A stretch of DNA of 64,000 nucleotides, taken from positions 124,250,001 through 124,314,000 of the forward strand of contig CM059431.1 in the NCBI GenBank assembly GCA_030390025.1, read 5' to 3'. Of the stretch, positions 429 through 38,861 are shown piece after piece. The DNA comes from Squalus acanthias. Lineage: Eukaryota. How positions within the stretch are numbered: the stretch's first letter is position 1; each line of letters starts with the position of its first letter. Under the pieces are notes generated by a model that searched no databases, had not been told where the DNA came from, and saw only the letters and a program-made list of their open reading frames with translations. The position numbers and the translations under genes were made by a program.

Positions 429-2029
429 TGTAGAATTCGCAATTATCGCGATTTCATTTTAATAAGGAGAAAACACAAGTTTCGTTCAAAACAGCTTTTA
501 TTTCAACGGAATGCTGTCAGGTTTAAATTAGACACAAGCAGCCTGTAAAATGGCCGCCGCACCGCGTGACAGAACATTCGAGACTTTTCGGCAGGCAGAC
601 AAGATGGCGTTCCAATAAACATTTTTGCAGGATCGATAACGATTCAGCACAGTGAAGACATTACACAGGACATTATGGGTTTACAGTATAAACATCGATA
701 CTGGAATCGGTCTCCCAGGTACAAAGGAAAGCCATCAAGGGCCCATCCAAAGGACATTAATATGTAAACTCCCAACGGCTCTACGATGAGAGAGCCGTTA
801 GCAGGTAGTTATACAGGACACTTGGAAGCCCCAAACCCCTCCAGGGGGAACACCGACCGATTTAACAATGGGAGAAGTATTAGCAGGTACTCAAACATTC
901 AGGAGTAGCCCCGAAACCCATTAAAGACAGAGATCACCCTTACAGGACTTTTTGGGCGCCAAACCTTAAACAAAAGAATGGACATTATAGTTGGGCGGGA
1001 AACGGAAGAACTGTGCACTATAATTGCAGGCCCAAACCGTCCATTCTGTCTCTTGACTCTTGATTCTTGCTCCTGCCTCGTGTTCGTGACTCTTGCCGCT
1101 TGCTGCTGTTATCATCGTGGCTGCTCCTGGGTAAAAGACTGTTGCAAAGACCTATGTTGGTAGCTGGCAGCGGAACCGAAGGCCCGGGATGAGATGAGAT
1201 GAGATGAGATGAGATGAGAGGAGAAGAGAAGAAGACCTTATCCATCGCCACGGTCAGTAAATCCCGACCGCGCCTGTAGGTCGATCAGCCAAGTCTTCTT
1301 GACAGGAAGTTCTCTTCTTTAACAAAACATATTGCATCGATGATAACTGGACTGTGCAAACACATCGTATCAGCGATATTGACAACGGTGCTCCACCATA
1401 CCCTGTATCCAACCAACAGAGGTCTTCACTACAGCGGACGGTCCAGCCGACTGACCGAGCAGCAGAAGCAGTAAACAAGTGGGACCAGGAGATCTCCTGA
1501 CCAACACGTGGGTGCTGCGGTGAAAAACATCCGATCAGCTATTCGGGATTTCTCCGAGTTATTACGAGTGGTGAGCATGAGTCTCGGGATCCTACGAAGC
1601 TAGTTTTAGGATAGTTATTGATAGGGGAGGGTTGAAAGTTTAAGGATATTTGTAATGTGTGCCCTATTTACGTTGTGCTGGTCGTTCCTCGTTTCCCTAA
1701 GAGTGATTATAACTGTTTGTAAGATTGTACTGTCATTCATCTGTGCATATGACATGTATTTCATAATTTTAAGTATCATGCAATAAAGATTTTCCATTTC
1801 GTACCGTTCAAACCAAGTCTACATGAGTTTTATCTCCATTACTGCTCTCGCATCTAAGTCCAGTGTCTAGAACCGTAAGGGAGAGTGATTCGAACCACTC
1901 ACAGGGGTGTCTAGTGTTCCCAGACTGGCTGGAGACCAGGCCTAGACCCGCACTGACATACAGGCTGCACAGAGCCGCGTGAACCTCACAGGCCACGAGA
2001 CACGCAGGGTCAGGAGAGTATCCCTTACA
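429..2029 (+). repeat. 5' LTR of provirus A (1601 bp)
   Basis: Starts TGTAGAATTCGC, ends TATCCCTTACA. Repeated at 8068-9668 (offset 7639) with identical ORF-track translations. AATAAA at 1782-1787; (GAGAT)n at ~1187-1217. Confidence 0.97.
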
Positions 2030-2033
2030 GAAA

Positions 2034-3845
2034 ATGGCGACCGCGGCACGAGACTGGCAGCGAGAGGGTAGTGTGTTAGATTTTGGAATGACTGTACGAA
2101 ATGTTATGCAGGAAAAGATAGCGGATTACGTGTTTGGAAAGGTTAATCTAACGAAAAAGTGGATAAGCGAACTGTTAGCGGATAAGAGCCCACTAGAGGC
2201 AGCTGAAAGGTGGACGGATAGTAAGGAGCATAAAAAGGCAGTTGAGAAAGCAGTCTGGCTTATGTGCTACAAAAGGCAGGTCCAGATTTCTAACCAGACC
2301 AATACAGCGCTAACCGCTCGAATCAAGCAGTTAGAGGAGGAAATGGAGGAGAAGGTTTCTGGAGGGGAGGTGCTCATTAAGAGTTTAAATGAGTTACGCC
2401 AGGAAAGCCAGGAAGTCTCCAGCTACCTTAAAACAAGGGTAGAGTATCTCGAGTGCCAGATCACTGAAGCAAAATTAAACGAGAATAGGATGAAGGAAAG
2501 ATGTAACCGTCAAGCTGCCCAGATAAGAACTCAAGAAGAGAGCTTAATGGGGGTTAGGTCGGCGTATAAGTTGGCCCTTGAGGATAAGTTTCAGGGAGCC
2601 GACCATAGCGCCTGCGAAAAAGAGATAGAGAGCCTCAAAAAGGCCGTGAATAATGCGAACGGCATGGTGTGCCTTATTAATCCGTCGGCACGCCAGCCGC
2701 TAGTAAATGAGAGATTTAGAAATTCCCCACCAAGTAAAGCAGAAGAGGTAGTAGCCACTGCGCCCTCCGCGCCACCCAGCTATTCAGAAACCTGGGTTAG
2801 GGAGGAAGCAACGGAAGAAGCGAAAGAGCCCGTTGAAAAAGAGGTAGAAAAGGGATCGTTGTATCCAGTAACGGGGATTAAAAGGGGCCCAAGCAGAAAC
2901 GGTGGGGAAGAACCGGGGGATCTCCTCGGACAGCTGGTGTTGCCTCACAGTTCACATCAGCTGAGGGCCATGATAAACCACGTAAGGAAGCTGACCGAGA
3001 TAGACGACCCTTCCGTACATTTTAGGGAAGTTGAGCAAGCCGCAGCCATCAACGGCTGCGATGATGGGGAGACAGCAAAAATGCTGCTGTTCTCGTTAGA
3101 TAGCTCGGTCCTTCAGTGTCTCTCAGGCGATAGCAAGAGGGGAAACAAAAGTTATGAGGAATTGAAAAATGAGGTCCTAGAAGTAGTGGGAGCGAACGAC
3201 GGAGGTCCGTTTGCTAGAGTGGGACAGACAGTGCAGATGGAGGGAGAACCCCCGAAGGTTTTTGCCGACAGGCTGTGGCCAGTATATGAGCGCAGCTGTC
3301 TAGGTGCGCCCGAGCGCGAAGATGTGGAAGGCGCCGCTTTAATTCATTGGCTTAGGTGCATAATAGCCAACAGTTTACCAGCCGTTAGAGAGCAGGCAAA
3401 AGCCTGGTTCGATCCCAATGACCTCAACCTTACGGAAGAGTCGGTCTTGAATCGACTCACGTTAGGTTACCGTAACATAAGGGGTATGGCAACACGTCCC
3501 TTTAAGGGAAGAGTACATGAGGTACGACCCGCAGCCCCGGCTCAAAGAGAGTGGCATCAGGAGGGTAATCGCGCCCCACCGGCAAGCAATGCCTGTTACG
3601 GGTGTGGGAAGACAGGGCACTGGCGCAAGCACTGCAGGAACCCTTGGAAGGATTCCAAGGATAAGAATCCCGCGGTCCGAGCCCAGGCGCCTGTCCCGGC
3701 TAAGGAAGCAAAGGTACCCACCTCTCCCGAAGACCTCGAAGCAGTGTTAGGAGTCATGCGCAAGATGGTTTTAAATGCGCGTGGACAGGTGGCGGTCGCA
3801 ACCGGCCCCGTAGGTGCCGCAGGACCGTCTAATAGTACCCAATGA
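2034..3845 (+). CDS. gag: Gag (603 aa): N-terminal coiled coil, PSAPPSY late domain, capsid-like region, CCHC zinc knuckle
   Basis: Intact ORF directly after the LTR; CYGCGKTGHWRKHC at 3594-3635; about 98% aa identity to 35401-37212. Confidence 0.93.
   Translation: MATAARDWQREGSVLDFGMTVRNVMQEKIADYVFGKVNLTKKWISELLADKSPLEAAERWTDSKEHKKAVEKAVWLMCYKRQVQISNQTNTALTARIKQLEEEMEEKVSGGEVLIKSLNELRQESQEVSSYLKTRVEYLECQITEAKLNENRMKERCNRQAAQIRTQEESLMGVRSAYKLALEDKFQGADHSACEKEIESLKKAVNNANGMVCLINPSARQPLVNERFRNSPPSKAEEVVATAPSAPPSYSETWVREEATEEAKEPVEKEVEKGSLYPVTGIKRGPSRNGGEEPGDLLGQLVLPHSSHQLRAMINHVRKLTEIDDPSVHFREVEQAAAINGCDDGETAKMLLFSLDSSVLQCLSGDSKRGNKSYEELKNEVLEVVGANDGGPFARVGQTVQMEGEPPKVFADRLWPVYERSCLGAPEREDVEGAALIHWLRCIIANSLPAVREQAKAWFDPNDLNLTEESVLNRLTLGYRNIRGMATRPFKGRVHEVRPAAPAQREWHQEGNRAPPASNACYGCGKTGHWRKHCRNPWKDSKDKNPAVRAQAPVPAKEAKVPTSPEDLEAVLGVMRKMVLNARGQVAVATGPVGAAGPSNSTQ
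2035..2052 (+). promoter_or_regulatory. Primer-binding site, probably tRNA-Arg(UCG), overlapping the gag start codon
   Basis: TGGCGACCGCGGCA begins after a 5-nt gap (GAAAA) following the LTR. The consensus with copy B (TGGCGACCGCGGCAGGAC) matches the complement of the vertebrate tRNA-Arg-TCG 3' end as I recall it; not checked by search. Confidence 0.75.
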
Positions 3846-5006
3846 CTAGAGCCCACGCAGCCTGCCTACCTGTGTCCTTTTAAAAGACACGCACAGGAGG
3901 GGGTCTGCGGTGAGGAGGCCAGGTTAAAAGAGCAGGCCTTGCGGGAGGAGAACGCCCGCTTAATAGAGAAAATAGATGGGCTGGAAGGGCAGCTTAGAGA
4001 GCAGACCCTGCGGGAGGAGAACGCCCGATCAATGGGAAAGTTAGACGTGCTCAGGCTAGAAGAGCAGCTTAGAGAGATAAAAGCAGCCTACAGGGTAGCC
4101 AAAAGCAGGGAGTATGAGTATTTAAAACAGGATAGAAATCTGCAGCCTCCAGCAGGTGAGATTTCACAGAAACAAGCAGGGGCGGTGGCCTGTCTTAAGG
4201 GAGGGGCCAGACCTGCGAGTGGGGAAGCACAGCCCCAGGTAGGACCACAAGGCACACAGGCAGGCATAGCAGCTTGCATCAGGGGAAGGGACATCCCGGA
4301 CGATCATGCAGCGTTTTTCTGGAGTTGGGGGTTAGATGACGAGGACCCCAGGGTACCCTGGTCAGATGAGGATAGTGCAGATGAGCATAGTGATGATGAC
4401 GGGTGGTTTCACAGGAACGGTCTGGAAGGATTGGGGCCGCTAGGTAGAGATCCATACGGGGTGGACACACAAGCTGCAGGTCCCGACAGCAGGAGGAAGG
4501 AGCTAGAGGAGGCCGGGCCAGCCGCTATGTGGTTCCCAGAGGTGTGGCCGCCCGCTTTGAACGTCCAGTCCTCGGGGGAGGCAGAGTTCGCGAGTGAAGG
4601 GCCGCCTGCTGGGCCGAGCAGGGCGGGGCCCCGAACTGCCAGCCCCGAGGTTAGGGAGGAGGAGTCAGCGGAGGCGGGGCTGGCGCCTGTGATGGAACCC
4701 CAGGTCATCCCGTTGAAGGTCTCGGGACCCGGTCCGTCCGTCACGGAGCCCCCGCCCATAGCAATTCCCCGTAGGTCAAGCAGAGTACCCCAGCCCAGGA
4801 AGACGTGGTCAGGTCCACAGGCTGCCCCAGGGCGTAAGTTTCAGGTTAAGATAACCCGGGTAGAGACAGGCCACATCGAGGCAGTAACAGGCTGCGGCAG
4901 ATCAGAGGAAAGGGTCAGCGCAGCAACAGGCTGCGGCAAATCAGAGGGAAGGGTCAGTGCCCTCCCACCGTCGGGAAGAGCTCGCAGCAGCCTTCTCAGG
5001 ATTTAA
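3846..5006 (+). CDS. ORF X: in-frame continuation past the gag UGA. First ~10 Pol residues, then a ~115-aa Gag-like coiled coil, then the Pol/IN C-terminal tail (predicted 990-aa Gag-X readthrough product)
   Basis: Open and in frame with gag (3939-2034 is divisible by 3; no stop in 3846-3938). The C-terminal ~260 aa align with the end of copy B Pol. No PR, RT, RH or IN motifs. Confidence 0.8.
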   Translation, partial: LEPTQPAYLCPFKRHAQEGVCGEEARLKEQALREENARLIEKIDGLEGQLREQTLREENARSMGKLDVLRLEEQLREIKAAYRVAKSREYEYLKQDRNLQPPAGEISQKQAGAVACLKGGARPASGEAQPQVGPQGTQAGIAACIRGRDIPDDHAAFFWSWGLDDEDPRVPWSDEDSADEHSDDDGWFHRNGLEGLGPLGRDPYGVDTQAAGPDSRRKELEEAGPAAMWFPEVWPPALNVQSSGEAEFASEGPPAGPSRAGPRTASPEVREEESAEAGLAPVMEPQVIPLKVSGPGPSVTEPPPIAIPRRSSRVPQPRKTWSGPQAAPGRKFQVKITRVETGHIEAVTGCGRSEERVSAATGCGKSEGRVSALPPSGRARSSLLRI

Positions 5007-5288
5007 AGGGGCCGCCCTGAGAACGGGCGGCATTGTAAAGTTATTAGTTTAAGGTTTTAAGTTTAGTTTAAAGTTTTAAGTAGTTTTAATAAGTTTAAGT
5101 TTGTAGTGGTTTTAACAGATAACGACAAATGATGGGAGTTTTAAGGCTAGGTTTAGAGGAAGTCTGTTCAGCAAACGTTGAAGTTTACGTGAGGCGAGGT
5201 CAGGGGACCCGCTCACCCTTCACAAAAGCCAGAGACTTTTTGCGAGGCTGGCTACCTCATTCTATCTGATCACAGGAACCAAGGAAGG

Positions 5289-7640
5289 ATGGAACGACTT
5301 CTAGTTTTGCTCGTGGCAATCGGATGTGGATTGGCCTATCGGGGCCTCACCAAGGATGTCGTGGTGTTTGGATGTTCCGGGGACACGGCCCCCATCGCGG
5401 TGGATGGGACCGGGAGACGGAAGGCAGAAGGGACCAGCACCTATTTCCACAAGGGAAGGTGGCCAGGATGGCTGGGAACGAACTCAACGGAGTATTCCAG
5501 CACATCGGGGTTCGCCTACAAAGAGACTTCTTTAATGTGCCCCAAAGTACGGATCATCGCACCCAGGATCAGCGTCACCGTCGGCAAACGGATTTGTTTG
5601 ACTTGCAGTGGGAATGTCCCATTGAGCCGATGGTGGTGGCTGCGAAAGCTGAGCAAAACTATGAGGAACTCTTCGGTCGAGTGGGAGCGACTGGGTAATA
5701 ATACCCATCGGACAATTACGGGGACAGATGGACAAGTGAAAGTCTGTTGGGACAAATGGTGGGAACCAGATGAGGGGATTTATGTTTGTATGTGGGGGTC
5801 AAAGTACGTTTGCCCCAAAGGCATCTCCATATTCTTTATTAACCAGTGGCAGGATAACGGACAGGGGATGAGGTGGGATGCGAGCACCAGGGGGTGCGGA
5901 GCCCCATTCTCCCCGATCCCAGTAAATGCCACTGAGCTCATTACGCGCCCACGCAAAGCCCCGCCCACGATTCCGGTAGTTCTAACTGAGGAAGAAGGGT
6001 GCCCTAAAACTAGTAAGGGACCCGGGAACGGTTTGGTACTGGTCCCCACAGACCAGATACTATTTCAGGGAGTGCATTACGCGGTGGCCTCGGTGATTTT
6101 AAATCTCACTGAGGTACGGTTACCAGAGTGGTGCCCCAAAAAGACGGAACAGTTGTACCAGGTCCTGTTGACCAAGATGTTCAGGCAGTTTTACGAGTTC
6201 GATTTCGCGGAAATTGATAAGACAAGTTTATACACCGCACCGCAGGAAGTTTTGGATCAAGTTGGGAGGCAAAGAAGGGGTTTGGTGAACGATGCGTTCA
6301 CTGCTTTTAACACAGGGACATCTGTGGTCAACGCTCTAGACAGTGTGGAGCTGCAGACCCAGATTAATGGTTTAAAAACACAGTTAAAGGATATTCTCAC
6401 GGATGAGAATAAAGTGGTAGGGTCGGGTCTGCACGAGGACCAAGCCATGACACTACACTTAAAAGAGATTATAGCAGAGCTGGAGAAACATGCGCGTACG
6501 GTAAATGCCCTGATTAGGGAAGATCGGAATGCATCCGATCAAGCTGCGCAGAACGAGGTGTGCGTGCTTTACGGGGCGTGGTTACTGGGCGAGGGCCGCA
6601 GTAATTTGGAGGATTTAAAACAAGGTTTGGTCCCGTCCTGGATAAGTAACAAACACCTGCGGGCGCTCCACCCTTTTCAGAATGCATTAAGTCCGTGCCA
6701 GCTCAGGCTAGCTTCAGAAGCTTACCCAGTCCCCGTGGACTGCGGACGTTCAAACCATACTATTATGGGAATAGTATTACGCATGCCGGTTTTGGGCAAC
6801 ACAGCAAAGCCCGCCCCGGTGTATCGGGTAGAGAACATTGGTGTCATTCAGGGGGGAGCCCACATTCGTTATGCAGCGGTTCCACCTTACGTCATCCGCT
6901 GGGAGCAAACGATGACAGGTACAGATCTCTCTGGTTGTCGTGGCAGGGGAGCACACATAATACTGTGCCCCCAGCACTTGAATGCCTTTTTAACACCACA
7001 GTGCGGGTTCAGAACGGCTGGCGCCAAGTCCATGAATTGCACCATGGAGGCAATGGCACAAGATCATGTGCCTCCGCAGGTAGCATACATCGGGGGTGGA
7101 ACATATTGTGTTACCACTGCAGCGCAACACTACCAGCATGGAAACCGTAGCCGGTGTCCGGTGAGTGACAGCAGTTTCTGTTTTAAACCCAGGGCTGAAG
7201 TTCAAGTAGCACAACAGCGAATTATCCCAATCCCTGAACCATCCACTGTTCACCTCACAGTAAAAGAGAATTTTACCGACTTGCAGCGTTTTGTCGCACA
7301 TTTTGGGTACCTCATTCCCCCTCTCCCCGAGCATTTAACCAAACTTCTGAAAGCCGTCGCGGTGTCACAAAAGCATTTCTATACTTTAGAACAGAAAACC
7401 GTCGAGATAGGTACAGACATTTTGGACATAGTGGTTCCACCGTGGTGGAATCTGTTCACGAATATTGAAGTGCCCTCATGGGTCAGAATAGCCTCCCACA
7501 TTTTAGTCGTCTGTCAAGTGTTTATTGTAGTATACCTTTTGTTTATACATTGTAAAAGAGACAAGCGCCTCACCAAGCATGAGAACACGGGAGAGTGGCG
7601 AGAACGTTACGTGCGCGTGCACGATGAGAGCGCAGTGTAA
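5289..7640 (+). CDS. env: Env-like class I fusion glycoprotein (783 aa): signal peptide, Ig-like domain, furin site RQRR, heptad repeat, Cys-rich region, TM, cytoplasmic tail
   Basis: Hydrophobic N-terminus; RQRR|GLVNDAFTAF at 6267-6278 followed by heptads; several NxS/T sites; TM ILVVCQVFIVVYLLFI; position before the 3' LTR; candidate acceptor ...tctgatcacag at 5275. Confidence 0.9.
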   Translation: MERLLVLLVAIGCGLAYRGLTKDVVVFGCSGDTAPIAVDGTGRRKAEGTSTYFHKGRWPGWLGTNSTEYSSTSGFAYKETSLMCPKVRIIAPRISVTVGKRICLTCSGNVPLSRWWWLRKLSKTMRNSSVEWERLGNNTHRTITGTDGQVKVCWDKWWEPDEGIYVCMWGSKYVCPKGISIFFINQWQDNGQGMRWDASTRGCGAPFSPIPVNATELITRPRKAPPTIPVVLTEEEGCPKTSKGPGNGLVLVPTDQILFQGVHYAVASVILNLTEVRLPEWCPKKTEQLYQVLLTKMFRQFYEFDFAEIDKTSLYTAPQEVLDQVGRQRRGLVNDAFTAFNTGTSVVNALDSVELQTQINGLKTQLKDILTDENKVVGSGLHEDQAMTLHLKEIIAELEKHARTVNALIREDRNASDQAAQNEVCVLYGAWLLGEGRSNLEDLKQGLVPSWISNKHLRALHPFQNALSPCQLRLASEAYPVPVDCGRSNHTIMGIVLRMPVLGNTAKPAPVYRVENIGVIQGGAHIRYAAVPPYVIRWEQTMTGTDLSGCRGRGAHIILCPQHLNAFLTPQCGFRTAGAKSMNCTMEAMAQDHVPPQVAYIGGGTYCVTTAAQHYQHGNRSRCPVSDSSFCFKPRAEVQVAQQRIIPIPEPSTVHLTVKENFTDLQRFVAHFGYLIPPLPEHLTKLLKAVAVSQKHFYTLEQKTVEIGTDILDIVVPPWWNLFTNIEVPSWVRIASHILVVCQVFIVVYLLFIHCKRDKRLTKHENTGEWRERYVRVHDESAV

Positions 7641-8055
7641 TGGGAAAACGGCGTCACTCCCGCTCGCCATGTGCGCCGCGGAAGTTTGTGCTCAGTGTAA
7701 ATACGTTGGAAACTCGACATGTTTAAGAGTCGGGATTTGTTTATTTTGGTGATGGTGTTGATTGTTTGGTTTTTTTTTGGGTTTTGTTTTTCCTTTCCCT
7801 GAATAAAAGATAAATATACAGGTGATGCGTGAGGTATCGGCCTGGTTACGCCGGGAAGGAAAACAAGTGGTGTAAGTTTAAGGGCAAATGATGCCTACGG
7901 TGATATAAAGTGTGATTTTCTTGGGAAATAAGGACGACACAGAGACCCTAGTGAAGTTAAAATTTTATGGGATTAATTTACTGGATTCGGAGTGAAATCG
8001 AGATAAGATTGCTCACCACTGAGTTTTTGATACGATAAGCGGAGTTATTCGCATC

Positions 8056-8067
8056 AACAGGAGGGAC
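8056..8067 (+). promoter_or_regulatory. Polypurine tract (short)
   Basis: AACAGGAGGGAC immediately before the 3' LTR; same sequence in copy B (27816-27827, minus strand). Confidence 0.75.
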
Positions 8068-9668
8068 TGTAGAATTCGCAATTATCGCGATTTCATTTTA
8101 ATAAGGAGAAAACACAAGTTTCGTTCAAAACAGCTTTTATTTCAACGGAATGCTGTCAGGTTTAAATTAGACACAAGCAGCCTGTAAAATGGCCGCCGCA
8201 CCGCGTGACAGAACATTCGAGACTTTTCGGCAGGCAGACAAGATGGCGTTCCAATAAACATTTTTGCAGGATCGATAACGATTCAGCACAGTGAAGACAT
8301 TACACAGGACATTATGGGTTTACAGTATAAACATCGATACTGGAATCGGTCTCCCAGGTACAAAGGAAAGCCATCAAGGGCCCATCCAAAGGACATTAAT
8401 ATGTAAACTCCCAACGGCTCTACGATGAGAGAGCCGTTAGCAGGTAGTTATACAGGACACTTGGAAGCCCCAAACCCCTCCAGGGGGAACACCGACCGAT
8501 TTAACAATGGGAGAAGTATTAGCAGGTACTCAAACATTCAGGAGTAGCCCCGAAACCCATTAAAGACAGAGATCACCCTTACAGGACTTTTTGGGCGCCA
8601 AACCTTAAACAAAAGAATGGACATTATAGTTGGGCGGGAAACGGAAGAACTGTGCACTATAATTGCAGGCCCAAACCGTCCATTCTGTCTCTTGACTCTT
8701 GATTCTTGCTCCTGCCTCGTGTTCGTGACTCTTGCCGCTTGCTGCTGTTATCATCGTGGCTGCTCCTGGGTAAAAGACTGTTGCAAAGACCTATGTTGGT
8801 AGCTGGCAGCGGAACCGAAGGCCCGGGATGAGATGAGATGAGATGAGATGAGATGAGAGGAGAAGAGAAGAAGACCTTATCCATCGCCACGGTCAGTAAA
8901 TCCCGACCGCGCCTGTAGGTCGATCAGCCAAGTCTTCTTGACAGGAAGTTCTCTTCTTTAACAAAACATATTGCATCGATGATAACTGGACTGTGCAAAC
9001 ACATCGTATCAGCGATATTGACAACGGTGCTCCACCATACCCTGTATCCAACCAACAGAGGTCTTCACTACAGCGGACGGTCCAGCCGACTGACCGAGCA
9101 GCAGAAGCAGTAAACAAGTGGGACCAGGAGATCTCCTGACCAACACGTGGGTGCTGCGGTGAAAAACATCCGATCAGCTATTCGGGATTTCTCCGAGTTA
9201 TTACGAGTGGTGAGCATGAGTCTCGGGATCCTACGAAGCTAGTTTTAGGATAGTTATTGATAGGGGAGGGTTGAAAGTTTAAGGATATTTGTAATGTGTG
9301 CCCTATTTACGTTGTGCTGGTCGTTCCTCGTTTCCCTAAGAGTGATTATAACTGTTTGTAAGATTGTACTGTCATTCATCTGTGCATATGACATGTATTT
9401 CATAATTTTAAGTATCATGCAATAAAGATTTTCCATTTCGTACCGTTCAAACCAAGTCTACATGAGTTTTATCTCCATTACTGCTCTCGCATCTAAGTCC
9501 AGTGTCTAGAACCGTAAGGGAGAGTGATTCGAACCACTCACAGGGGTGTCTAGTGTTCCCAGACTGGCTGGAGACCAGGCCTAGACCCGCACTGACATAC
9601 AGGCTGCACAGAGCCGCGTGAACCTCACAGGCCACGAGACACGCAGGGTCAGGAGAGTATCCCTTACA
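8068..9668 (+). repeat. 3' LTR of provirus A (1601 bp)
   Basis: Direct repeat of 429-2029, followed by TSD ATGG. Confidence 0.97.
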
Positions 9669-9888
9669 ATGGGAATCCCCTTTTTGATTGGTTGGACCGG
9701 CCCACGTGATCCCAGGGACGCTTCCGAACCGTGCGCGCCCCTGGGATACGTGGGCTTTACGCGGGCGTACGCCTGCAGGCCCAGGACCGCCAGAGTCCGA
9801 AGATATGGAGGCACCAGGTAGGTGTGTACTTTTTTTGTGGATTGGAGGCGTTCGCCCGCGGGAAGTCTCCGACCACAATTTCCAGTCC
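9669..9888. mobile_element. Right part of the MITE interrupted by provirus A
   Basis: Shares ggcccacgtgatcccagggacgctt with 16231-16256; ends with TIR-like ...caatttccagtcc followed by ATT. Confidence 0.65.
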
Positions 9889-25430: not shown

Positions 25431-26170
25431 GGATAGGTATTCTTATTTATTATGTAATCCTCAAATCAGTAAGATTCTTATACATTGAATATCAGGTATC
25501 ATAGATTTATTAAATATACAGCACATGTATAATAGTACTTAAACATACACTGAAAATATAGACCTAGAAATTGGATATAGCCATGAAATGGACAGTGTTA
25601 AGGCCAAACGATGTTAAGCTGCACCACCTGAAAATGGTCTAGGTAGCCTGCAAAATTTGTGCTCACTCTTCATTAACATGTCATGATTTCAGCTTTAAAG
25701 CTGATGCTCATTGGCTTAACGCTCAACAGTTTAATTCAGTCATGTTTGCCGCAGGGCAGTTGGGTTTTCAGCTGCCCCAACAACCAGAAGTTCAAGGACA
25801 AGCAAGAGTTCTGTACACATAGCAGATTGTCGTACCAGAGAGAGAGCCAGGAGGTTCTCTGATGAAGCTCTAGAGGCACTCGTAGTGGCTGTGGAGAGGA
25901 GGTGGGATATCCTCTACCTGCAAAGTGGCAGAAAGCCCTCGCCCTATATGTCCCGTACCATGTGGTAGGAGATAGCGGACTATGTGACAGCCAGCACTGT
26001 GGTGACACAGTCCGCCATCCAGTGCAGGAAGAAGTTTAATGACCTCACAAGGTGGTCAAGGTGAGTGAAGGCTTCAGAAAATGCCATATCCCACCATCTG
26101 CACCACAAGCCTCACACACTGCTCAATGCACCACACCCCCAGCACTCACCTACCAACAATCTCTACCTTT

Positions 26171-27815
26171 TGTAAGGGATTCTCTCCTGACCCTGCGTGT
26201 CTCGTAGCCTGTGAGATTCACGCGGCTCTGTGCAGCCTGTATGTCAGTGCGGGTCTAGGCCTGGTCTCCAGCCAGTCTGGGAACACTAGACACACCTGTG
26301 AGTGGTTCGAATCACTCTCCCTTACGGTTCTAGACACTGGACTTAGATGCGAGAGCAGTAATGGAGATAAAACTCATGTAGACTTGGTTTGAACGGTACG
26401 AAATGGAAAATCTTTATTGCATGATACTTAAAATTATGAAATACATGTCATACGCACAGATTAATGACAGTACAATCTTACAAACGGTTATAATCACTCT
26501 TAGGGAAACGAGGAACGAACGGCACAACGTAAATAGGGCACACATTACCAATATCCTTAATCTTTACACCCTCCCCTATCAATATCTATCCTAAACTAGC
26601 TTCGTAGGATCTCGAGACTCATGCTCACCACTCGTAATAACTCGGAGAAATCCCGAATAGCTGATCGGATGTTTTTTACCGCAGCACCCACGTGTTGGTC
26701 AGGAGATCTCCTGGTCCCACTTGTTTACTGCTTCTGCTGCTCGGCCAGTCGGCTGGACCGTCCGCTGTAGTGAAGACCTCTGTTGGTTGACTTCACAGTT
26801 TAGTTGAGGAACACCGTTGTCAATATCACTGATACGATGTGTTTACACAGTCCAGTTATCATTGATGCAATATGTCTTGTTAAAGAAGAAAACTTCCTGT
26901 CGAGAAGACTTGGCTGATCGACCTACAGGCGCGGTCGGGATTTACTGACCGTGGCGATGGATAAGGTCTTCTTCTCTTCTCCTCTCATCTCATCTCATCT
27001 CATCTCGGGCCTTTGGTTCCGCTGCCAGTTACCAACATAGGTCTTCTTTACGCGACACGAGGTAGATCCGAACGGATCAGAAAGTTCAACAGTCTTTTAC
27101 ACAGGAGCAGCCACGAGGTTACGAATCGACCGGATAAAACACAGGAGCAGCCACGATGATAACAGCAGCAAGCGAGCAAGAGGCAAGAGTCAAGAGAGCG
27201 AATGGACGGTTTGGGGCCTGCAATTATAGTGCGAAAATCTTCCGTTTCCCGCCCAACTATAATGTCCATTCTTTTGTTTAAGGTTTGGCGCCCAAATGTC
27301 TTGTGTGGGTGATCTCCGTCCTTAATGGGTTTCGGGGCTACTCATGAATGTTTGAGTACCTGTTAATACTTCTCCCATTGTTAAATCGGTCGGTGTTCCC
27401 CCTGGAGGGGTTTGGGGCTTCCAAGTGTCCTGTATAACTACCTGCTAACGGCTCTCTCATCGTAGAGCCGTTGGGAGTTTGCATATTAATGTCCTTTGGA
27501 TGGGCCCTTGATGGCTTTCCTTTGTACCTGGGAGACCGATTCCAGTATCGATGTTTATACTGTAAACCCATAATATCTCGTGTATTATCTTCACTGTGCT
27601 GAATCGTTATCGATCCTGCAAAAATGTTTAATGGAACGCCATCTTGTCTGCCTGTTGAAAAGTCTAGAATGTTCTGTCACGAGGTGCGGCGGCCATTTTA
27701 CAGGCTGCTTGTGTCCAATTTAAACCTGACAGCATTCTGCTGAAATAAACGCTGTTTGAACGAAACTTTGTGTTTTCTCCTTATTAATCAAATCGTGATA
27801 ATTGCGAATTCTACA
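26171..27815 (-). repeat. 3' LTR of provirus B (1645 bp)
   Basis: Direct repeat of 37217-38861 (offset 11046); identical ORF-track translations. Confidence 0.97.
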
Positions 27816-28373
27816 GTCCCTCCTGTTGATGCGAATAACTCCGCTTATCGTATCAAAACTCTCAGTGGTGAGCAATCTTATCTCGATTTCACTCCGAATC
27901 CAGTAAATTAATCCCATAAATTTTAACTTAACTAGGGTCTCTGTGTCGTCCTTATTTCCCAAGAAAATCACATTTTATATCACCATAGGCATCATTTGCC
28001 CTTAAACTTACACCACTTGTTTTCCTTCCCGGCGTAACCAGGCCGATACCTCACGCATCACCTGTATATTTGTCTTTTATTCAGGGAAAGGAAAAACAAA
28101 ACCCAAAACCAAACAATCAACACCATCACCAAAATAAAACAAATCCCAACTCTTAAACATATCGAGTTTCCAACGTATTTACAATGAGTACAAACTTCCG
28201 CGGCGCACGTGGCGAGCGGGAGTGACGCCATTTTCCTATTACACGGTACTCTCGTCGTGCACGCGCACGTAACGTTCTCGCCACTCTCCCGTGTTCTCAT
28301 GCTTGGTGAGGCGCTTGTCTCTTTTACAATGTATGAACAATAGGTATACTACAATAAACACTTGACAGACGAC

Positions 28374-30590
28374 TCAAATGTGGGAGGCTATTCTGACCCA
28401 TGAGGGTACTTCAATATTAGTGAACAGATTCCACCACGGTGGAACCACTATGTCCAAAATGTCTGTTCCAATTTCGACGGTTTTCTGTTCTAATGTATAA
28501 AAATGCTTTTGTGACACCGCGACGGCTTTCAGAAGTTTGGTTAAATGCTCAGGGAGAGGGGGAATGAGGTATCCAAAATGCGCGACAAATCGCTGCAAGT
28601 CGGTGAAATTCTCTTTTACTGTGAGATGAACAGTGGATGGTTCAGGGATTGGGATAATTCGCTGTTGTGCTACTTGAACTTCAGCCCTGGGTTTAAAACA
28701 GAAACTGCTGTCACTCACCGGACACCGGCTACGGTTTCCATGCTGGTAGTGTTGCGCTGCAGTGGTAACACAATATGTTCCACCCCCGATGTATGCTACC
28801 TGCGGAGGCACATGATCTTGTGCCATTGCCTCCATGGTGCAATTCATGGACTTGGCGCCAGCCGTTCTGAACCCGCACTGTGGTGTTAAAAAGGCATTCA
28901 AGTGCTGGGGGCACAGTATTATGTGTGCTCCCCTGCCACGACAACCAGAGAGATCTGTACCTGTCATCGTTTGCTCCCAGCGGATGACGTAAGGTGGAAC
29001 CGCTGCATAACGAATGTGGGCTCCCCCCTGAATGACACCAATGTTCTCTACCCGATACACCGGGGCGGGCTTTGCTGTGTTGCCCAAAACCGGCATGCGT
29101 AATACTATTCCCATAATAGTATGGTTTGAACGTCCGCAGTCCACGGGGACTGGGTAAGCTTCTGAAGCTAGCCTGAGCTGGCACGGACTTAATGCGTTCT
29201 GAAAAGGGTGAAGCGCCCGTAGGTGTTTGTTACTTATCCAGGACGGAACCAAACCTTGTTTTAAATCCTCCAAATTACTGCGGCCCTCGCCCAGTAACCA
29301 CGCCCCGTAAAGCACGCACACCTCGTTCTGCGCAGCTTGATCGGATGCATTCCGATCTTCCCTGATCAGGGCATTTACCGTACGCGCATGTTTCTCCAGC
29401 TCTGCTATAATTTCCTTTAAATGGAGAGTCATGGCTTGGTCCTCATGCAGACCCGACCCTACCACTTTATTCTCATCTGTTAGAATGTCTTTTAACTGTG
29501 TTTTTAAACCATTAATCTGGGTCTGCAGCTCCACACTGTCTAGAGCGTTGACCACAGATGTCCCTGTGTTAAAAGCAGTGAACGCATCGTTCACCAAACC
29601 CCTTCTTTGCCTCCCTACTTGATCCAAAACTTCCTGCGGTGCGGTATACAAACTTGTCTTATCAATTTCTGCAAAATCAAACTCGTAAAATTGTCTGAAC
29701 ATCTTGGTCAACAGGACCTGATACAACTGTTCCGTCTTTTTGGGGCACCACTCTGGTAACCGTACCTCAGTGAGATTTAAAATCACCGAGGCCACCGCGT
29801 AATGTACCCCCTGAAATAGTATCTGGTCTGTGGGGACCAGTACCAAACCGTTCCCGGGTCCCTTACTAGTTTTAGGGCACCCTTCTTCCTCAGTTAGAAC
29901 CACCGGAATTGTGGGCGGGGCTTTGCGTGGGCGCGTAATGAGTTCAGTGGCATTTACTGGGATCGGGGAGAATGGGGCTCCGCACCCCCTGGTGCTCGCA
30001 TCCCACCTCATCCCCTGTCCGTTATCCTGCCACTGATTAATAAAAAATATGGAGATGCCTTTGGGGCAAACGTACTTTGACCCCCACATACAAACATAAA
30101 TCCCCTCATCCGGTTCCCACCATTTGTCCCAACAGACTTTCACTTGTCCGTTTGTCCCCGTAATTGTCCGATGGGTATTATTACCCAGTCGTTCCCACTC
30201 GACCGAAGAGTTCCTCATAGTTTTGCTCAGCTTTCGCAGCCACCACCATCGGCTCAATGGGACATCCCCACTACAGGTCAAACAAATCCGTTTGCCGACG
30301 GTGACGCTGATCCTGGGTGCGATGATCCGTACTTTGGGGCACATTAAAGAAGTCTCCTTGTAGGCGAACCCCGATGTGCTGGAATACTCCGTTGAGTTCG
30401 TTCCCAGCCATCCTGGCCACCTTCCCTTGTGGAAATAGGTGCTGGTCCCCTCTGCCTTCCGTCTTCCGGTCCCATCCACCGCGATGGGGGCCGTGTCCCC
30501 GGAACATCCAAACACCACGACATCCTTGGTGTGGCCTCGATAGGCCAATCCACATCCGATTGCCACGAGCAATACTAGAATTCGTTCCAT
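28374..30590 (-). CDS. env: Env (738 aa), truncated by TTA>TGA at the start of the TM helix; the downstream frame stays intact to ...RYVRVHDESTV*
   Basis: Differs from copy A Env at only 4 aa that I could find (L4I, L20H, N109D, D147N); CAC ATT TGA GTC here versus CAC ATT TTA GTC in A. Confidence 0.9.
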   Translation of the reverse strand: MERILVLLVAIGCGLAYRGHTKDVVVFGCSGDTAPIAVDGTGRRKAEGTSTYFHKGRWPGWLGTNSTEYSSTSGFAYKETSLMCPKVRIIAPRISVTVGKRICLTCSGDVPLSRWWWLRKLSKTMRNSSVEWERLGNNTHRTITGTNGQVKVCWDKWWEPDEGIYVCMWGSKYVCPKGISIFFINQWQDNGQGMRWDASTRGCGAPFSPIPVNATELITRPRKAPPTIPVVLTEEEGCPKTSKGPGNGLVLVPTDQILFQGVHYAVASVILNLTEVRLPEWCPKKTEQLYQVLLTKMFRQFYEFDFAEIDKTSLYTAPQEVLDQVGRQRRGLVNDAFTAFNTGTSVVNALDSVELQTQINGLKTQLKDILTDENKVVGSGLHEDQAMTLHLKEIIAELEKHARTVNALIREDRNASDQAAQNEVCVLYGAWLLGEGRSNLEDLKQGLVPSWISNKHLRALHPFQNALSPCQLRLASEAYPVPVDCGRSNHTIMGIVLRMPVLGNTAKPAPVYRVENIGVIQGGAHIRYAAVPPYVIRWEQTMTGTDLSGCRGRGAHIILCPQHLNAFLTPQCGFRTAGAKSMNCTMEAMAQDHVPPQVAYIGGGTYCVTTAAQHYQHGNRSRCPVSDSSFCFKPRAEVQVAQQRIIPIPEPSTVHLTVKENFTDLQRFVAHFGYLIPPLPEHLTKLLKAVAVSQKHFYTLEQKTVEIGTDILDIVVPPWWNLFTNIEVPSWVRIASHI

Positions 30591-30876
30591 CCTTCCTTGG
30601 TTCCTGTGATCAGATAGAATGAGGTAGCCAGCCTCGCAAAAAGGTCTCTGGCTGTTGTGAAGGGTGAGCGGGTCCCCTGACCTCGCCTCACGTAAACTTC
30701 AACGTTTGCTGAATAGACTTCCTCTAAACCTAGCCTTAAAACTCCCATCATTTTATCGTTTTCTGTTAAAAACACTACAAACTTAGCCTTATTAAAACTA
30801 CAAACTTAACCTTGAACTAAAACTTAAAACTTAAAACTAAAACTTTACAGTGCCGCCCGTTCTCAGGGCGGCCCCT

Positions 30877-33800
30877 TTAAATTCTGAGAAGGCTGCTGCG
30901 AGCTCTTCCCGACGGTGGGAGGGCACTGACCCTTCCCTCTGATCTGCCGCAGCCTGTTGCTGCGCTGACCCTTTCCTCTGATCTGCCGCAGCCTGTTACT
31001 GCTTCGATGTGGCCTGTCTCTACCCGGGTTATCTTAACCTGAAACTTACGCCTTGGGGCAGTCTGGGGACATGACCACATCCTCCTGGGCTGGGGTTCTC
31101 TACTAGACCTACGGGGAGTTGCTATGGGCGGGGGTTCCGTGACGGACGGACCGGGTTCCGAGACCTCCAACGGGACGACCTGGGGTTCCATCACAGTCGC
31201 CGACTCCGCCTCCGCTGACTCCGCCTCCCTAACCCCGGGGCTGGCATTTCGTGGCTCCGCCCTGCTCGGCCCAGCAGGCGGCCCTTCACTCGTGATCTCT
31301 GCCTCCCCTGAGGACTGGACGTTCAAAGCGGGCGGCCACACCTCTGGGAACCACATTGGTACTCTCTGTGCTCCTATAGCGGCTGGCCCCGCCTCCTCTA
31401 GCTCCTCCCTCCTGTACTCGGGACCTGCAGCTTGTGTGTCCACCCCGTGTGGATCTCTACCTATCGGCCCCAATCCTCCCAGACCGTTCCTCCGGAACCA
31501 CCCGTCATCATCACTATGCTCATCTGCACTATCCTCATCTGACCAGGGTACCCTGGGTTCTTCGTCATCTAACCCCCAACTCCAGAAAAACGCTGCATGA
31601 TCGTCCGGGATGTCCCTTCCCCTGATGCAAGCTGCTACGCCTGCCTGTGTGCCTTGTGGTCCTACCTGGGGCTGTGTTTTCCCATTGGCGGGATTTACCC
31701 CTGTAGTTTTCCCCTGCGCACCCGGCTGGTACAGTTTGCATTGGTTTATGTGGAACCACTTAGTGCGCCGAGGTACTTTTACGGCGTAAACCATGGGACT
31801 CGCCTTGTCTACAATGTTGTAGGGTCCCATATACAGTGGTTCCAGACTCCCTACTCTGGCGTAGTTTCTGACCATGACCTGGTCTCCTACTTCCCACTCC
31901 CGCGTTTTGCGGGGTTCCAGCAACAAGCGATTGCCCTGATGCTGCCTTCCCATGTTCCCAGCCGCCTGCTCATAAACTTGCTTCAGGCGCTCCAAGAGAG
32001 TTTGGGCGAACTTGTCCCTGCTGATCTCTTGAAGCTGACCCTCAGTGAGCACCGGGGCTAGCACATGGGTGGGGGTTCGCATGAGCCTGCCGGTCATTAC
32101 CTCGTGCGGGGAGTACCCCGTACTTTTTGACTGACTGGCCCGGACCCCCATGAGGACTAAAGGCAGAACTTCCGCCCATTTTTGGGGCGAGTTCCTAGTC
32201 TCTTTCCTCAATTTCTCCTTCAGGGTCCGGTTCATACGTTCAACAATCCCGGATGACTGGGGATTGTGTGCTACGTGCCACTTCCCTTCAATGCCCAAAA
32301 GCATGAGGGTGTTCTGCATCACCTGGCCGGTGAAATGACTCCCTTGGTCTGACTCCACGAAACGGGGGAGTCCCCACCGCGAGAACACTTCCCGGACCAA
32401 GATTTTTGCTGTACCCAGTGCCGTAGCTGTTCGACAAGGGAAGGCTTCCACCCACTTGGAAAACACATCCACCAGGACGAGGCAGTACTTATAACCTCCC
32501 TGGGTGGTGGGCAGGGGTCCTATATAGTCGATCTGTATCGACTGCCATGGTCCCTCTACCCTTCTTACGTGTCCCATGGGCACCTTCCTTTTCTGGGGGT
32601 CTGGGTTGTTTGCAGCGCACACAAGACAGTTAGCGCAGAACTCGCGGACTTGTTCCCTGAGCCCTGGCCACCATCCCGCTTGCTCTACCCGTTGCCAGGT
32701 AACCTCGGGCCCGGGGTGCCCTGCCCCTGGTCCCTCGTGAGCCAACTGGAGGAATTCCCTCCTGTGCTGCTGCGGCACAACCCACTGCTCCCCGCGGAAC
32801 AGCATGCCTTCCTTAACTGAGAGGGTTGCCGTACTGTACGGACCTTCTACCTGCCTCCCCTCAGCAATCGTTTTTAGGACTGCTTTTAGGGCGGGATCCT
32901 GGGCTTGGACGGTCTTAAGGTCTAGGGGCAATGCTACCCTGGTGTTCCCGGTATTCCCGTCCCCACCTCGGACCGCTGCTATGGGTCCGGTCCTATAGGG
33001 GTTCCAGAAAATACCGTCTCGGGCACCCTCCCTGGCTAGCGCATCCGCCTGCCGGTTGCCCTCCCCACGGGGCTCTGTGGAGGAGTGAGCTTTCACCTTA
33101 TGGATGAAAATCTCCCCTTCCTCCCCTACTGCTGCTGCTAAGATCTTTTCCAGCAAGGGCTTCACCGTTAAAGGTCGCCCGTCCGCGGAGGTGTATCCGC
33201 GGCGGGACCAAATGGCCAGGTATTCCGTACACGAATTGCAGGTGAACATACTGTCCGAGCAAATCGTGTATGGGGTTGGGAAAATGTCTGGGTGGGTCAC
33301 CACGTACACCACGGCAGACAGCTCAGCTTGCTGCGCGCTCATGGTGCTAGGGAGCTTGATCGCCAGGGCAAGGTCTGCCGCAGGGTCATAAACTCCACAC
33401 CCTGTGAGTCGCTCGCCAGCAGACACTGTGCTAGACCCATCAACATAAATCTCGCGCCCAGTGGGATGTATCCCGGCCCGTAAACCTATGTTGACGTCCC
33501 ACACCCCTTCCACCGAACACCGGTGGGCTGTACCGGGGTATACCAAATTGGCCGCAAGCCTGGGCTCGCAAAGACCTTTTACTCTAAGATCCAACTGGGA
33601 GAGAAGAAGGGTCCAACGCGCAATGCGTGCGCTGCTTACGGTCCCATCTTTAATCCTCCCATCCAGAAGCATCTTAGTTGGTGTGTGATGTGTGAGGAGA
33701 GTGATGGGAGAGAGCCCTGTGAAGATCGCTGATCTTTTCACAGCCCAATGCGTGGCTAAAAGGTGCCTTTCGCAATTGGAGAAACTTCTCTCCACATCCG

Positions 33801-37212: not shown

Positions 37213-37216
37213 TTTC

Positions 37217-38861
37217 TGTAAGGGATTCTCTCCTGACCCTGCGTGTCTCGTAGCCTGTGAGATTCACGCGGCTCTGTGCAGCCTGTATGTCAGTGCGGGT
37301 CTAGGCCTGGTCTCCAGCCAGTCTGGGAACACTAGACACACCTGTGAGTGGTTCGAATCACTCTCCCTTACGGTTCTAGACACTGGACTTAGATGCGAGA
37401 GCAGTAATGGAGATAAAACTCATGTAGACTTGGTTTGAACGGTACGAAATGGAAAATCTTTATTGCATGATACTTAAAATTATGAAATACATGTCATACG
37501 CACAGATTAATGACAGTACAATCTTACAAACGGTTATAATCACTCTTAGGGAAACGAGGAACGAACGGCACAACGTAAATAGGGCACACATTACCAATAT
37601 CCTTAATCTTTACACCCTCCCCTATCAATATCTATCCTAAACTAGCTTCGTAGGATCTCGAGACTCATGCTCACCACTCGTAATAACTCGGAGAAATCCC
37701 GAATAGCTGATCGGATGTTTTTTACCGCAGCACCCACGTGTTGGTCAGGAGATCTCCTGGTCCCACTTGTTTACTGCTTCTGCTGCTCGGCCAGTCGGCT
37801 GGACCGTCCGCTGTAGTGAAGACCTCTGTTGGTTGACTTCACAGTTTAGTTGAGGAACACCGTTGTCAATATCACTGATACGATGTGTTTACACAGTCCA
37901 GTTATCATTGATGCAATATGTCTTGTTAAAGAAGAAAACTTCCTGTCGAGAAGACTTGGCTGATCGACCTACAGGCGCGGTCGGGATTTACTGACCGTGG
38001 CGATGGATAAGGTCTTCTTCTCTTCTCCTCTCATCTCATCTCATCTCATCTCGGGCCTTTGGTTCCGCTGCCAGTTACCAACATAGGTCTTCTTTACGCG
38101 ACACGAGGTAGATCCGAACGGATCAGAAAGTTCAACAGTCTTTTACACAGGAGCAGCCACGAGGTTACGAATCGACCGGATAAAACACAGGAGCAGCCAC
38201 GATGATAACAGCAGCAAGCGAGCAAGAGGCAAGAGTCAAGAGAGCGAATGGACGGTTTGGGGCCTGCAATTATAGTGCGAAAATCTTCCGTTTCCCGCCC
38301 AACTATAATGTCCATTCTTTTGTTTAAGGTTTGGCGCCCAAATGTCTTGTGTGGGTGATCTCCGTCCTTAATGGGTTTCGGGGCTACTCATGAATGTTTG
38401 AGTACCTGTTAATACTTCTCCCATTGTTAAATCGGTCGGTGTTCCCCCTGGAGGGGTTTGGGGCTTCCAAGTGTCCTGTATAACTACCTGCTAACGGCTC
38501 TCTCATCGTAGAGCCGTTGGGAGTTTGCATATTAATGTCCTTTGGATGGGCCCTTGATGGCTTTCCTTTGTACCTGGGAGACCGATTCCAGTATCGATGT
38601 TTATACTGTAAACCCATAATATCTCGTGTATTATCTTCACTGTGCTGAATCGTTATCGATCCTGCAAAAATGTTTAATGGAACGCCATCTTGTCTGCCTG
38701 TTGAAAAGTCTAGAATGTTCTGTCACGAGGTGCGGCGGCCATTTTACAGGCTGCTTGTGTCCAATTTAAACCTGACAGCATTCTGCTGAAATAAACGCTG
38801 TTTGAACGAAACTTTGTGTTTTCTCCTTATTAATCAAATCGTGATAATTGCGAATTCTACA
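37217..38861 (-). repeat. 5' LTR of provirus B (1645 bp)
   Basis: Reverse complement of TGTAGAATTCGC...ATCCCTTACA; followed by TSD CTTT. Confidence 0.97.

Follow-up and report, generated by a model that had tools for sequence, protein, structure and literature searches.

In type-C gamma-type retroviral envelope (Env) proteins, the receptor-binding domain RBD-C is a modified variable-type immunoglobulin (IgV) domain joined by a proline-rich region, and such receptor-binding domains (RBDs) have been transferred between lineages; the canonical IgV RBD of Env-Dbi, derived from SIRP, represents host capture by an Env (bioRxiv 2024.03.17.585361, in the portions available to us). Foamy-virus Env is F-like and carries its RBD as an insertion, in keeping with a minimal scaffold into which binding modules can be fitted, and class Ib scaffolds take RBDs either at the N-terminus or by insertion (available sections of PMC11468914). 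Here we describe the env gene of an endogenous retrovirus (ERV) found in a stretch of 64,000 nucleotides (nt) of the Squalus acanthias genome (assembly GCA_030390025.1, contig CM059431.1, positions 124,250,001 to 124,314,000 of the forward strand), which we refer to as the window and whose coordinates are used below. By analogy with these systems, we think it probable that the Env of this snakehead-retrovirus (SnRV)-like element is a class Ib fusogen whose N-terminal immunoglobulin (Ig) domain acts as an attachment, or receptor-binding, module. An earlier interpretation made from the letters of the window (the sequence-only reading) had taken it as established that classical retroviral surface subunits (SU) lack an N-terminal V-set domain, a premise that is wrong given the IgV nature of RBD-C in the available text of bioRxiv 2024.03.17.585361.

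Two copies of the provirus are present in the window. The env gene of the first, with amino acid (aa) numbering from its start codon and confidence given as the predicted local distance difference test (pLDDT), is laid out as follows:

5289..7640, forward strand: env of provirus 1, 783 aa, open
5289..5339, forward strand: signal peptide, about aa 1-17, by inspection
5349..5537, forward strand: N-terminal segment, aa 21-83, pLDDT mostly below 50
5538..5840, forward strand: Ig-superfamily domain, aa 84-184, with B-strand C106, C-strand W115-117 and F-strand DEGIYVC167
5841..5999, forward strand: linker, aa 185-237, with a Pro-rich stretch at aa 207-230; pLDDT below 50
6000..6278, forward strand: F2-like part, aa 238-330, ending in the furin site RQRR
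6267-6278, forward strand: furin site RQRR, aa 327-330, by motif
6279..7475, forward strand: F1-like ectodomain, aa 331 to about 729, with fusion peptide, heptad helices and beta domains
7476..7559, forward strand: transmembrane (TM) anchor, about aa 730-757, by hydropathy scan, followed by a tail of about 26 aa

Several modest lines of evidence agree that aa 84-184 very probably form an Ig-superfamily (IgSF) domain. The motifs stand where the sequence-only reading had placed them: its interval 5541-5840 corresponds to aa 85-184, ICLTC ends at C106, the WWW is residues 115-117, and DEGIYVC ends at C167, giving a C106-C167 spacing of 61; further conserved cysteines in the domain are C84, C103, C153 and C175, which may form the additional pairs C103-C153 and C84-C175. 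The pattern C..W..[DE]xGxYxC occurs once in Env and was found in 3 of 20,000 shuffles of Env, an optimistic figure since the pattern was written after the motif had been seen. Ig_3 was the sole Pfam family found on this stretch (E 0.012), and it matched five of six family members (best E 3.9e-4). Searching the Protein Data Bank (PDB) with the domain as a single sequence yielded Ig chains in 12 of 13 matches, all weak (E at least 0.17), while a 6-sequence profile of the domain matched the IgV domain of CRTAM at E 0.0027, with IgSF adhesion molecules making up 7 of the 8 matches. Ig clusters were also returned by an Atlas feature search, with a top score of 0.90.

The ectodomain was modelled as a monomer with AlphaFold2 (39 sequences); in this model the Ig domain had a pLDDT of 56-76 and the Ig strand order, with C106 and C167 predicted to sit on the B and F strands, respectively. 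When this model was aligned with VIA-align, 37 of the 50 matches listed fell on the Ig domain, with Z 6.9-7.4 and root-mean-square deviation (rmsd) 2.2-3.7 Å; the best of these had Z 7.4 and rmsd 2.2-2.7 Å over 78-81 residues. These matches were mostly Dscam, DIP, NCAM2, titin, myomesin, obscurin, basigin and antibody chains, with a few other sandwiches. As to set type, the model has a short C' strand and no C'', the top fold matches are mostly I-set, and the top profile match is V-set. The Ig call of the sequence-only reading was thus supported by hidden Markov models, language-model features, predicted fold and motif statistics.

Other results weigh against this assignment. Every sequence score was below the curated cut-offs (for Ig_3, 16.5 bits versus 30), and the first Atlas match shares 151 features, versus the 170 typical of true family matches. 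VIA warns that a Z below 8 can reflect a common arrangement, and the Z of the domain is about 7. The check that had been suggested, AlphaFold and Foldseek on aa 18-235, was uninformative: almost all Foldseek rows were Ig chains, but none reached E <=0.001 (best E 0.055), and the AlphaFold2 model (8 sequences) had a pLDDT of 35. VIA matched this stand-alone N-terminal model to pilin, adhesin and phage-tail sandwiches (Z up to 5.7), and an 8-sequence N-terminal profile searched against the PDB returned one unrelated match and none to Ig. Such sub-threshold Pfam scores, together with a poor stand-alone model whose matches are generic, could be explained if the region were a virus-specific Trp/Cys-rich beta-sandwich with a convergent motif, lying outside the IgSF; it would also fit this explanation that the CxxC (103-106) is kept without the rest of the signature in some heads of related Envs (P0012, P0023 and L019, see below). 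The agreement among the four kinds of evidence named above points instead to the IgSF, as do frog relatives with a canonical C-15-W-42-C spacing and the UniRef name 'Ig-like domain-containing protein' of a bamboo-shark relative, and we regard a convergent non-Ig sandwich as very improbable.

Behind this head, Env is, as judged from its modelled structure, an F-type (class Ib) fusion core. The F2/F1-like region proposed in the sequence-only reading was borne out structurally by Foldseek, VIA and BFVD matches to F-type proteins. Foldseek retrieved 236 matches at E <=0.001 and matched the F proteins of human parainfluenza virus 3 (hPIV3), respiratory syncytial virus (RSV), parainfluenza virus 5 (PIV5) and henipavirus, with hPIV3 F the best (E 2.6e-11). 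VIA aligned model residues 227-635 with RSV F (Z 11.3, rmsd 5.7 across 282 residues) and also matched foamy-virus Env (Z 7.7-7.8), which was the best match of the family profile against the PDB as well (E 0.002). Structural matches in BFVD were to lispivirus, baculovirus F and walleye retrovirus Env. In particular, the models of two walleye epsilonretrovirus Envs, Q9WHI8 and A4GTG3, match the F-type core at E 5e-12 and 7e-10, and therefore an F-type Env is no marker of lokiretroviruses. The furin site, the long helices behind it and the C-terminal hydrophobic stretch 730-757 all agree with a class Ib layout. At the level of sequence, Pfam Fusion_gly (PF00523) had no match on the window Env (P0001) or on 48 relatives, one Env relative had a weak Baculo_F match (E 0.0011), and a phmmer search of the F core against the PDB gave three matches, all unrelated.

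The F proteins of paramyxoviruses and pneumoviruses share this fold over aa 245-652, but they have no N-terminal head and work with a separate attachment protein; their internal Ig-like domain II belongs to the core and differs from the Ig domain described here. No separate attachment open reading frame (ORF) or other glycoprotein gene is present in the provirus. No ORF of at least 100 aa is wholly contained between env and the end of the 3' long terminal repeat (LTR), and only ORFs of 62 and 76 aa lie wholly within 7641-9669, in a scan that did not cover spliced small ORFs. The closest parallel in this respect is foamy-virus Env gp130 (PDB 8RM0/8RM1; available sections of PMC11468914), in which a retroviral Env likewise has a scaffold resembling paramyxovirus/pneumovirus F, contains its own RBD and works without a separate attachment protein. 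The suggestion that the Ig module replaces a G/HN protein therefore holds as a functional analogy only, since in that source foamy Env is already F-like with its own RBD and no attachment protein. The two heads differ: in foamy virus the RBD spans about 330 aa with a fold of its own and forms an insertion immediately ahead of the furin site, whereas the window head is a 100-aa Ig domain at the N-terminus, a coronavirus-like position. The window element also differs from foamy virus in the CCHC knuckle of its gag and in having pol in frame behind a stop codon.

The likeness to gamma Env is one of architecture only. As in the RBD-C of murine leukemia virus (MLV), feline leukemia virus (FeLV) and Env-Pb1, an IgV-like domain precedes the fusion machinery and is followed by a proline-rich linker (here with 6 Pro in aa 207-230), and, as with gamma-type RBDs, heads are gained, lost and swapped between lineages. 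The SIRP-like RBD class keeps a canonical B-F disulfide, and the Cys pair of the window Env suggests the same, while RBD-C has expanded loops and no B-F disulfide. Unlike gamma Env, with its gamma-type SU/TM, the core here is F-type class Ib; and unlike the SIRP-like RBD, which has a nameable mammalian donor, the window Ig domain has no detectable one (all gamma features from the available text of bioRxiv 2024.03.17.585361). No RBD-C structure was among the 50 VIA matches listed, an absence that is not an exclusion. Thus, a gamma-type design, Ig head plus Pro-rich linker, is found here on a class Ib scaffold, the concept itself being already known. The words 'loki', 'shark' and 'fish' are absent from the available text of bioRxiv 2024.03.17.585361, and 'immunoglobulin' from the searched passages of bioRxiv 2023.10.26.564294, PMC13709493, PMC12440569, PMC10435555 and PMC12193657. 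No report of an F-type retroviral Env with an Ig head was present in the literature searched, which left most subscription journals outside its coverage.

The heads of related Envs were compared using a phmmer search with Env over 1.84 billion representatives, which gave 49 matches, 20 of which were looked up by name. The named relatives come from sharks, a skate, frogs and coelacanth, the closest being those of the skate and sharks. Across the relatives the F core opens with a common CP motif, and the head ahead of it differs or is missing. The heads of the bamboo-shark protein bearing the Ig-like UniRef name (P0013) and of two frog proteins with the canonical spacing (P0019 and P0047) are Ig-like, and an Atlas feature search on P0019 scored 0.86 to Ig clusters, which we take as a lead only. 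The same genome holds a second Env family (L012:1189-3540, forward strand), with a 784-codon open frame and an F core 30% identical; this family is related to P0013, and its head is degenerate Ig-like, with Trp at the position of the F-strand Cys. Additional Env families of this genome (L015-L020) are mostly broken and combine the F core with other heads: that of L019 keeps the CxxC strand and a Pro/Thr-rich linker, and that of L017 looks unrelated. Heads of P0012, P0023, L017 and L019 are Cys-rich or degenerate. In P0037 and the coelacanth P0048, a signal-peptide-like start leads directly into the core and the head is absent.

The head of P0035, a Logan protein, is V-set-like without the Cys pair (aa 15-130), as judged from a Pfam match of the whole protein (E 0.045) and inspection of motifs, which we take to be of the CD2/CEACAM type. 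Among eight isolated head modules the best V-set E was 0.0015, the matching member not being named, and phmmer of P0035 against the PDB gave 0 matches. We consider P0035 the best candidate for a separate, more recent capture. In a 16-row tree of the core, in which six rows fill less than half of the columns, two branches are long and the root is for drawing, Ig-like heads occur in either half of the midpoint split (84/83), and the sister of P0035 is the head-less P0037 (97/95).

Homology among the heads is weakly shown at the sequence level. Seven head groups were compared by hhalign, and a single pair, the window head with P0013/L012, came to E 0.001 (probability 22%, 79 columns); the remaining 20 pairs had E 0.01 or worse, and A4 versus whole P0013 gave 1.5%. 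In a set of 14 sequences, the A4 profile matched P0013 at E 0.0036 and P0019 at 0.0079, with the best reversed control at 0.12. The distribution of heads fits either one old gain of an Ig head with losses and replacements, or several gains. Among the 49 phmmer matches no cellular protein was matched through the Ig domain alone, so no donor gene was found; the domain is likely of host origin, probably descended from an ancient host Ig gene from which it has diverged too far for that gene to be named.

More tentatively, and with somewhat less than even confidence, we raise the idea that SnRV-like retroviruses of sharks, rays and amphibians form a second, independent and very old host-Ig capture system, built on a class Ib fusogen. 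The head would have been gained near the base of the group and later lost repeatedly (P0048, P0037); elsewhere it would have eroded or given way to other heads (P0012/P0023, L019, L017), with at least one swap for a fresh Cys-less V-set (P0035). If this is true, the N-terminus of the F scaffold is a site always open to host adhesion domains that determine tropism, in a family newly expanded to very high copy number.

The env gene was compared between the two proviruses and with an older subfamily in the genome. The two window copies of env differ at 65 nucleotides. Of the claim that all four aa differences fall in the first 150 aa, the four substitutions are correct (codons 4, 20, 109 and 147, two of them in the Ig domain), but they are not all the differences, since codon 739 of copy 2, within the sequence for the TM, is an in-frame stop, and codon 782 behind it is changed as well. 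Within the Ig domain there are two nonsynonymous and six synonymous changes, a ratio of nonsynonymous to synonymous rates (dN/dS) of 0.09, while the remaining mature regions have 0 and 46. This difference (2:6 versus the rest of mature Env) gave a Fisher p of about 0.02 in a post hoc test computed with 44, not 46, and the excess indicates relaxed constraint at most. Positive selection on the Ig domain was considered and rejected, the dN/dS being about 0.1 despite the clustered amino acid changes.

For the older subfamily, 20 loci of 123 matches were used, and in 15 of the 20 the longest open frame spans the Ig domain. Against these loci, dN was about 0.25 in the Ig domain, 0.21 in F2 and 0.11-0.16 in the fully covered F1; aa 21-83 and the linker, each at about 0.4, were among the fastest-changing regions. 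Where dS could be computed, the dN/dS of the Ig domain was 0.08-0.14, a rough ratio as dS is near saturation. Fourteen of 15 key residues of the domain are kept in 19-20 of the 20 older copies: C106, W115-117, G163 and C167 are present in all 20 and Y165 in 19, with D161 in one. Between species, the domain is identical at 73/100, 64/98, 55/101 and 61/101 positions. These comparisons indicate that the Ig domain is a working, constrained part of Env, under purifying selection and somewhat freer than the core.

One further feature of the comparison between the window copies concerns codons 466-654 of env (about 6684-7250), where there are zero nucleotide differences over 189 codons. Because dS is 0.07-0.19 elsewhere, this segment is likely a recombination tract between subfamilies.

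The strong purifying selection and the invariant Cys/Trp set are also what one might see if the Ig domain were real but structural or accessory, capping or shielding the prefusion trimer or aiding folding, with receptor contact made by the F core or aa 21-83. That aa 21-83 and the linker diverge faster than the Ig domain, and that relatives without a head exist, would suit this explanation. In addition, C29 in the N-terminal segment and C203 behind the Ig domain, retained in 20 of 20 older copies, flank the domain and may pair across it, suggesting that it lies within a further small module. Since relatives have lost or swapped the head, however, a conserved core is unlikely to depend on it for folding, and the Pro-rich linker argues for a mobile, independently folding domain as in gamma Env. 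We consider a structural role unlikely.

We favor instead the attachment role proposed at the outset because the provirus has no other glycoprotein gene, the Ig domains of gamma Env bind receptors, and the foamy-virus and coronavirus class Ib scaffolds carry RBDs. Two observations count against it. The Ig domain varies only somewhat more than the core does, less than might be expected for an RBD in conflict with its host, and the head-less P0037 and P0048 suggest that the core may bind cells alone. If the attachment role is correct, furin would cleave Env at RQRR and the Ig head would stay on the F2-like surface subunit (aa 18-330), so that three heads would lie outside the trimer on flexible Pro-rich tethers. 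Each head might then grip a cell-surface protein, plausibly another IgSF adhesion molecule, and this binding would tether the particle and help to set off the refolding of the F core, a mechanism that has been proposed for the RBDs of foamy-virus and gamma-type Envs.

Mimics built from Ig domains are frequent among large DNA viruses, and the best profile match of the window domain, CRTAM, is a lymphocyte IgV. Another possibility is that the domain is an immune-modulating mimic that engages a host immune receptor or ligand in place of an entry receptor. The Hotzel preprint, in its available text, speculates that host-derived RBDs are immunologically silent (bioRxiv 2024.03.17.585361), and this might be counted in favor of a mimic. 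The matches, however, are spread over unrelated IgSF proteins, namely CRTAM, DIP, IgLONs, JAM-A and light chains, so that no donor or ligand is marked out; a maintained mimic would not have diverged as far from every host protein as this domain has; and the domain is fused to a fusogen. A role as a mimic seems to us decidedly unlikely. Of the captured attachment or immune-modulating module envisaged in the sequence-only reading, built-in attachment is thus, by analogy, the best interpretation, and immune modulation found no support here.

An attachment role for the head would bear on the question of how Env proteins acquired their RBDs: RBD-C of gamma Env is Ig-like but has changed too much to be traced, and a single clear capture from a host, that of SIRP, is recorded. 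The window lineage appears to have reached the same solution on an unrelated F-type scaffold; its IgSF signature is recognizable, and nature provides relatives in which the head is missing or swapped. It supports the concept of class Ib fusogens as a minimal, module-accepting scaffold and offers a small soluble domain for a receptor search of a basal fish retrovirus.

The element had been linked to the lokiretroviruses in the sequence-only reading, an assignment that the pol analyses contradict; it is probably not a lokiretrovirus. By reverse transcriptase (RT), lokiretroviruses form a clade that is sister to all other retroviruses. In trees of RT and of RT plus tether, window pol grouped with elements of frogs and coelacanth and with ERV rows from bird and snake (98/98), the Loki-motif sequence P0076 fell outside, and forcing the Loki grouping gave a p-AU of 0.033. 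The trees contain 30 and 19 rows (three motif-less matches were dropped from the first, and 18 of 32 matches were chosen for the second), and the Loki placement depends on one proxy, P0076, picked by the RT motif in the PMC7947760 supplement, with no named reference in the trees. Features shared with lokiretroviruses (available text of PMC7947760) are an F-like Env with signal peptide, furin site, fusion peptide, coiled coil and TM, and a dual RNase H. Neither is diagnostic: window pol has Pfam RT_RNaseH and RNase_H, but a dual RNase H is common to all retroviruses, and an F-like Env with an RX[K/R]R site, as present here, is found also in foamy Env and, by models, in walleye retrovirus Env. 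As for the integrase, which in lokiretroviruses is related to CGIN1/NYNRIN, some pol matches are named NYNRIN-like, non-Loki rows included. Unlike lokiretroviruses, as far as that text describes them, the window element has an RT outside the Loki proxy and no smc ORF. The main text of PMC7947760, to the extent available, does not contain the word 'immunoglobulin', and in that work 0 of 3 chondrichthyan genomes were positive for lokiretroviruses.

The window provirus has a tRNA-Arg primer and gag and pol in frame behind one stop. SnRV likewise uses a tRNA-Arg primer and reads from gag into pol past one stop. The RT and RNase H motifs of the window match by eye the SnRV rows of the PMC7947760 supplement, and SnRV-like ERVs are known from elephant shark (CmiERV lineage I; PMC4422223, available text). 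The element is probably SnRV-like on these sequence features, namely RT/RNase H motifs, primer and gag-pol layout. SnRV differs in having a 136-aa Env tail and accessory ORFs (available text of PMC12193657), as against the tail of about 26 aa in the window Env.

The two proviruses, their LTRs located by self-BLAST, contain the following features, PBS denoting the primer-binding site:

429..9668, forward strand: provirus 1, LTR-gag-deleted pol-env-LTR, with TG...CA ends
429..2029, forward strand: 5' LTR of provirus 1
8068..9668, forward strand: 3' LTR of provirus 1
2035..2052, forward strand: PBS for tRNA-Arg(TCG), overlapping the gag start codon
2034..3845, forward strand: gag of provirus 1, 603 aa, open, with a coiled-coil N-terminal half and one CCHC knuckle
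3846..5006, forward strand: pol remnant of provirus 1, with a large internal deletion seen against copy 2
26168..38861, reverse strand: provirus 2, with LTRs at 26168-27815 and 37213-38861
35401..37212, reverse strand: gag of provirus 2, open
30877..35400, reverse strand: pol of provirus 2, encoding protease, RT, tether, RNase H and integrase, open
28374..30590, reverse strand: env of provirus 2, ending at the in-frame stop, codon 739, in the TM-coding stretch
30039..30341, reverse strand: second copy of the Ig domain, with 2 amino acid and 6 synonymous differences from copy 1

Provirus 1 is flanked by a 4-bp target-site duplication (425-428 and 9669-9672), and its LTRs are 100% identical across 1601 nt, compared with 99.94% for those of provirus 2 (both by self-BLAST). 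Because most of pol is gone, yet the LTRs are identical and env is open, provirus 1 was probably copied in trans very recently. As to expression, none of the holders listed was an RNA data set; the provirus is covered by four contig runs, which by their nature do not reveal transcription or splicing. In provirus 2, pol is in frame with gag, with one stop codon between them. The retrovirus family is young and very large in this genome: a search of the 3.7-Gb assembly with the Env N-terminus gave 6,019 candidates, a first-look count and not a copy number, and all 150 of the 150 scored were 100% identical after rounding, mostly in open frames of about 815 codons.

The tRNA-Arg(TCG) assignment comes from a pattern made from the reverse complement of the PBS, which had 431 genomic matches; the one examined, on C23, was identified as tRNA-Arg(TCG) by ARAGORN. 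Within 2030-2052 on the forward strand and 37194-37216 on the reverse strand, the gag ATG lies 4 nt past the LTR and overlaps the tRNA-Arg PBS. An untranslated leader 3' of the PBS is therefore absent, and the packaging signal must sit in the LTR or in gag. On C26, at about 39-42 Mb, long tandem arrays that repeat about every 1.62 kb also carry a tRNA-Arg-type motif. In pol of provirus 2, an acidic Pro-rich extension of about 250 aa, with no Pfam match, follows the integrase (30877-31700, reverse strand). Elsewhere in the window, a 42-nt tandem array and a low-complexity array (39866-40224 and 52202-52850) yield spurious ORFs that are unrelated to the Env finding.

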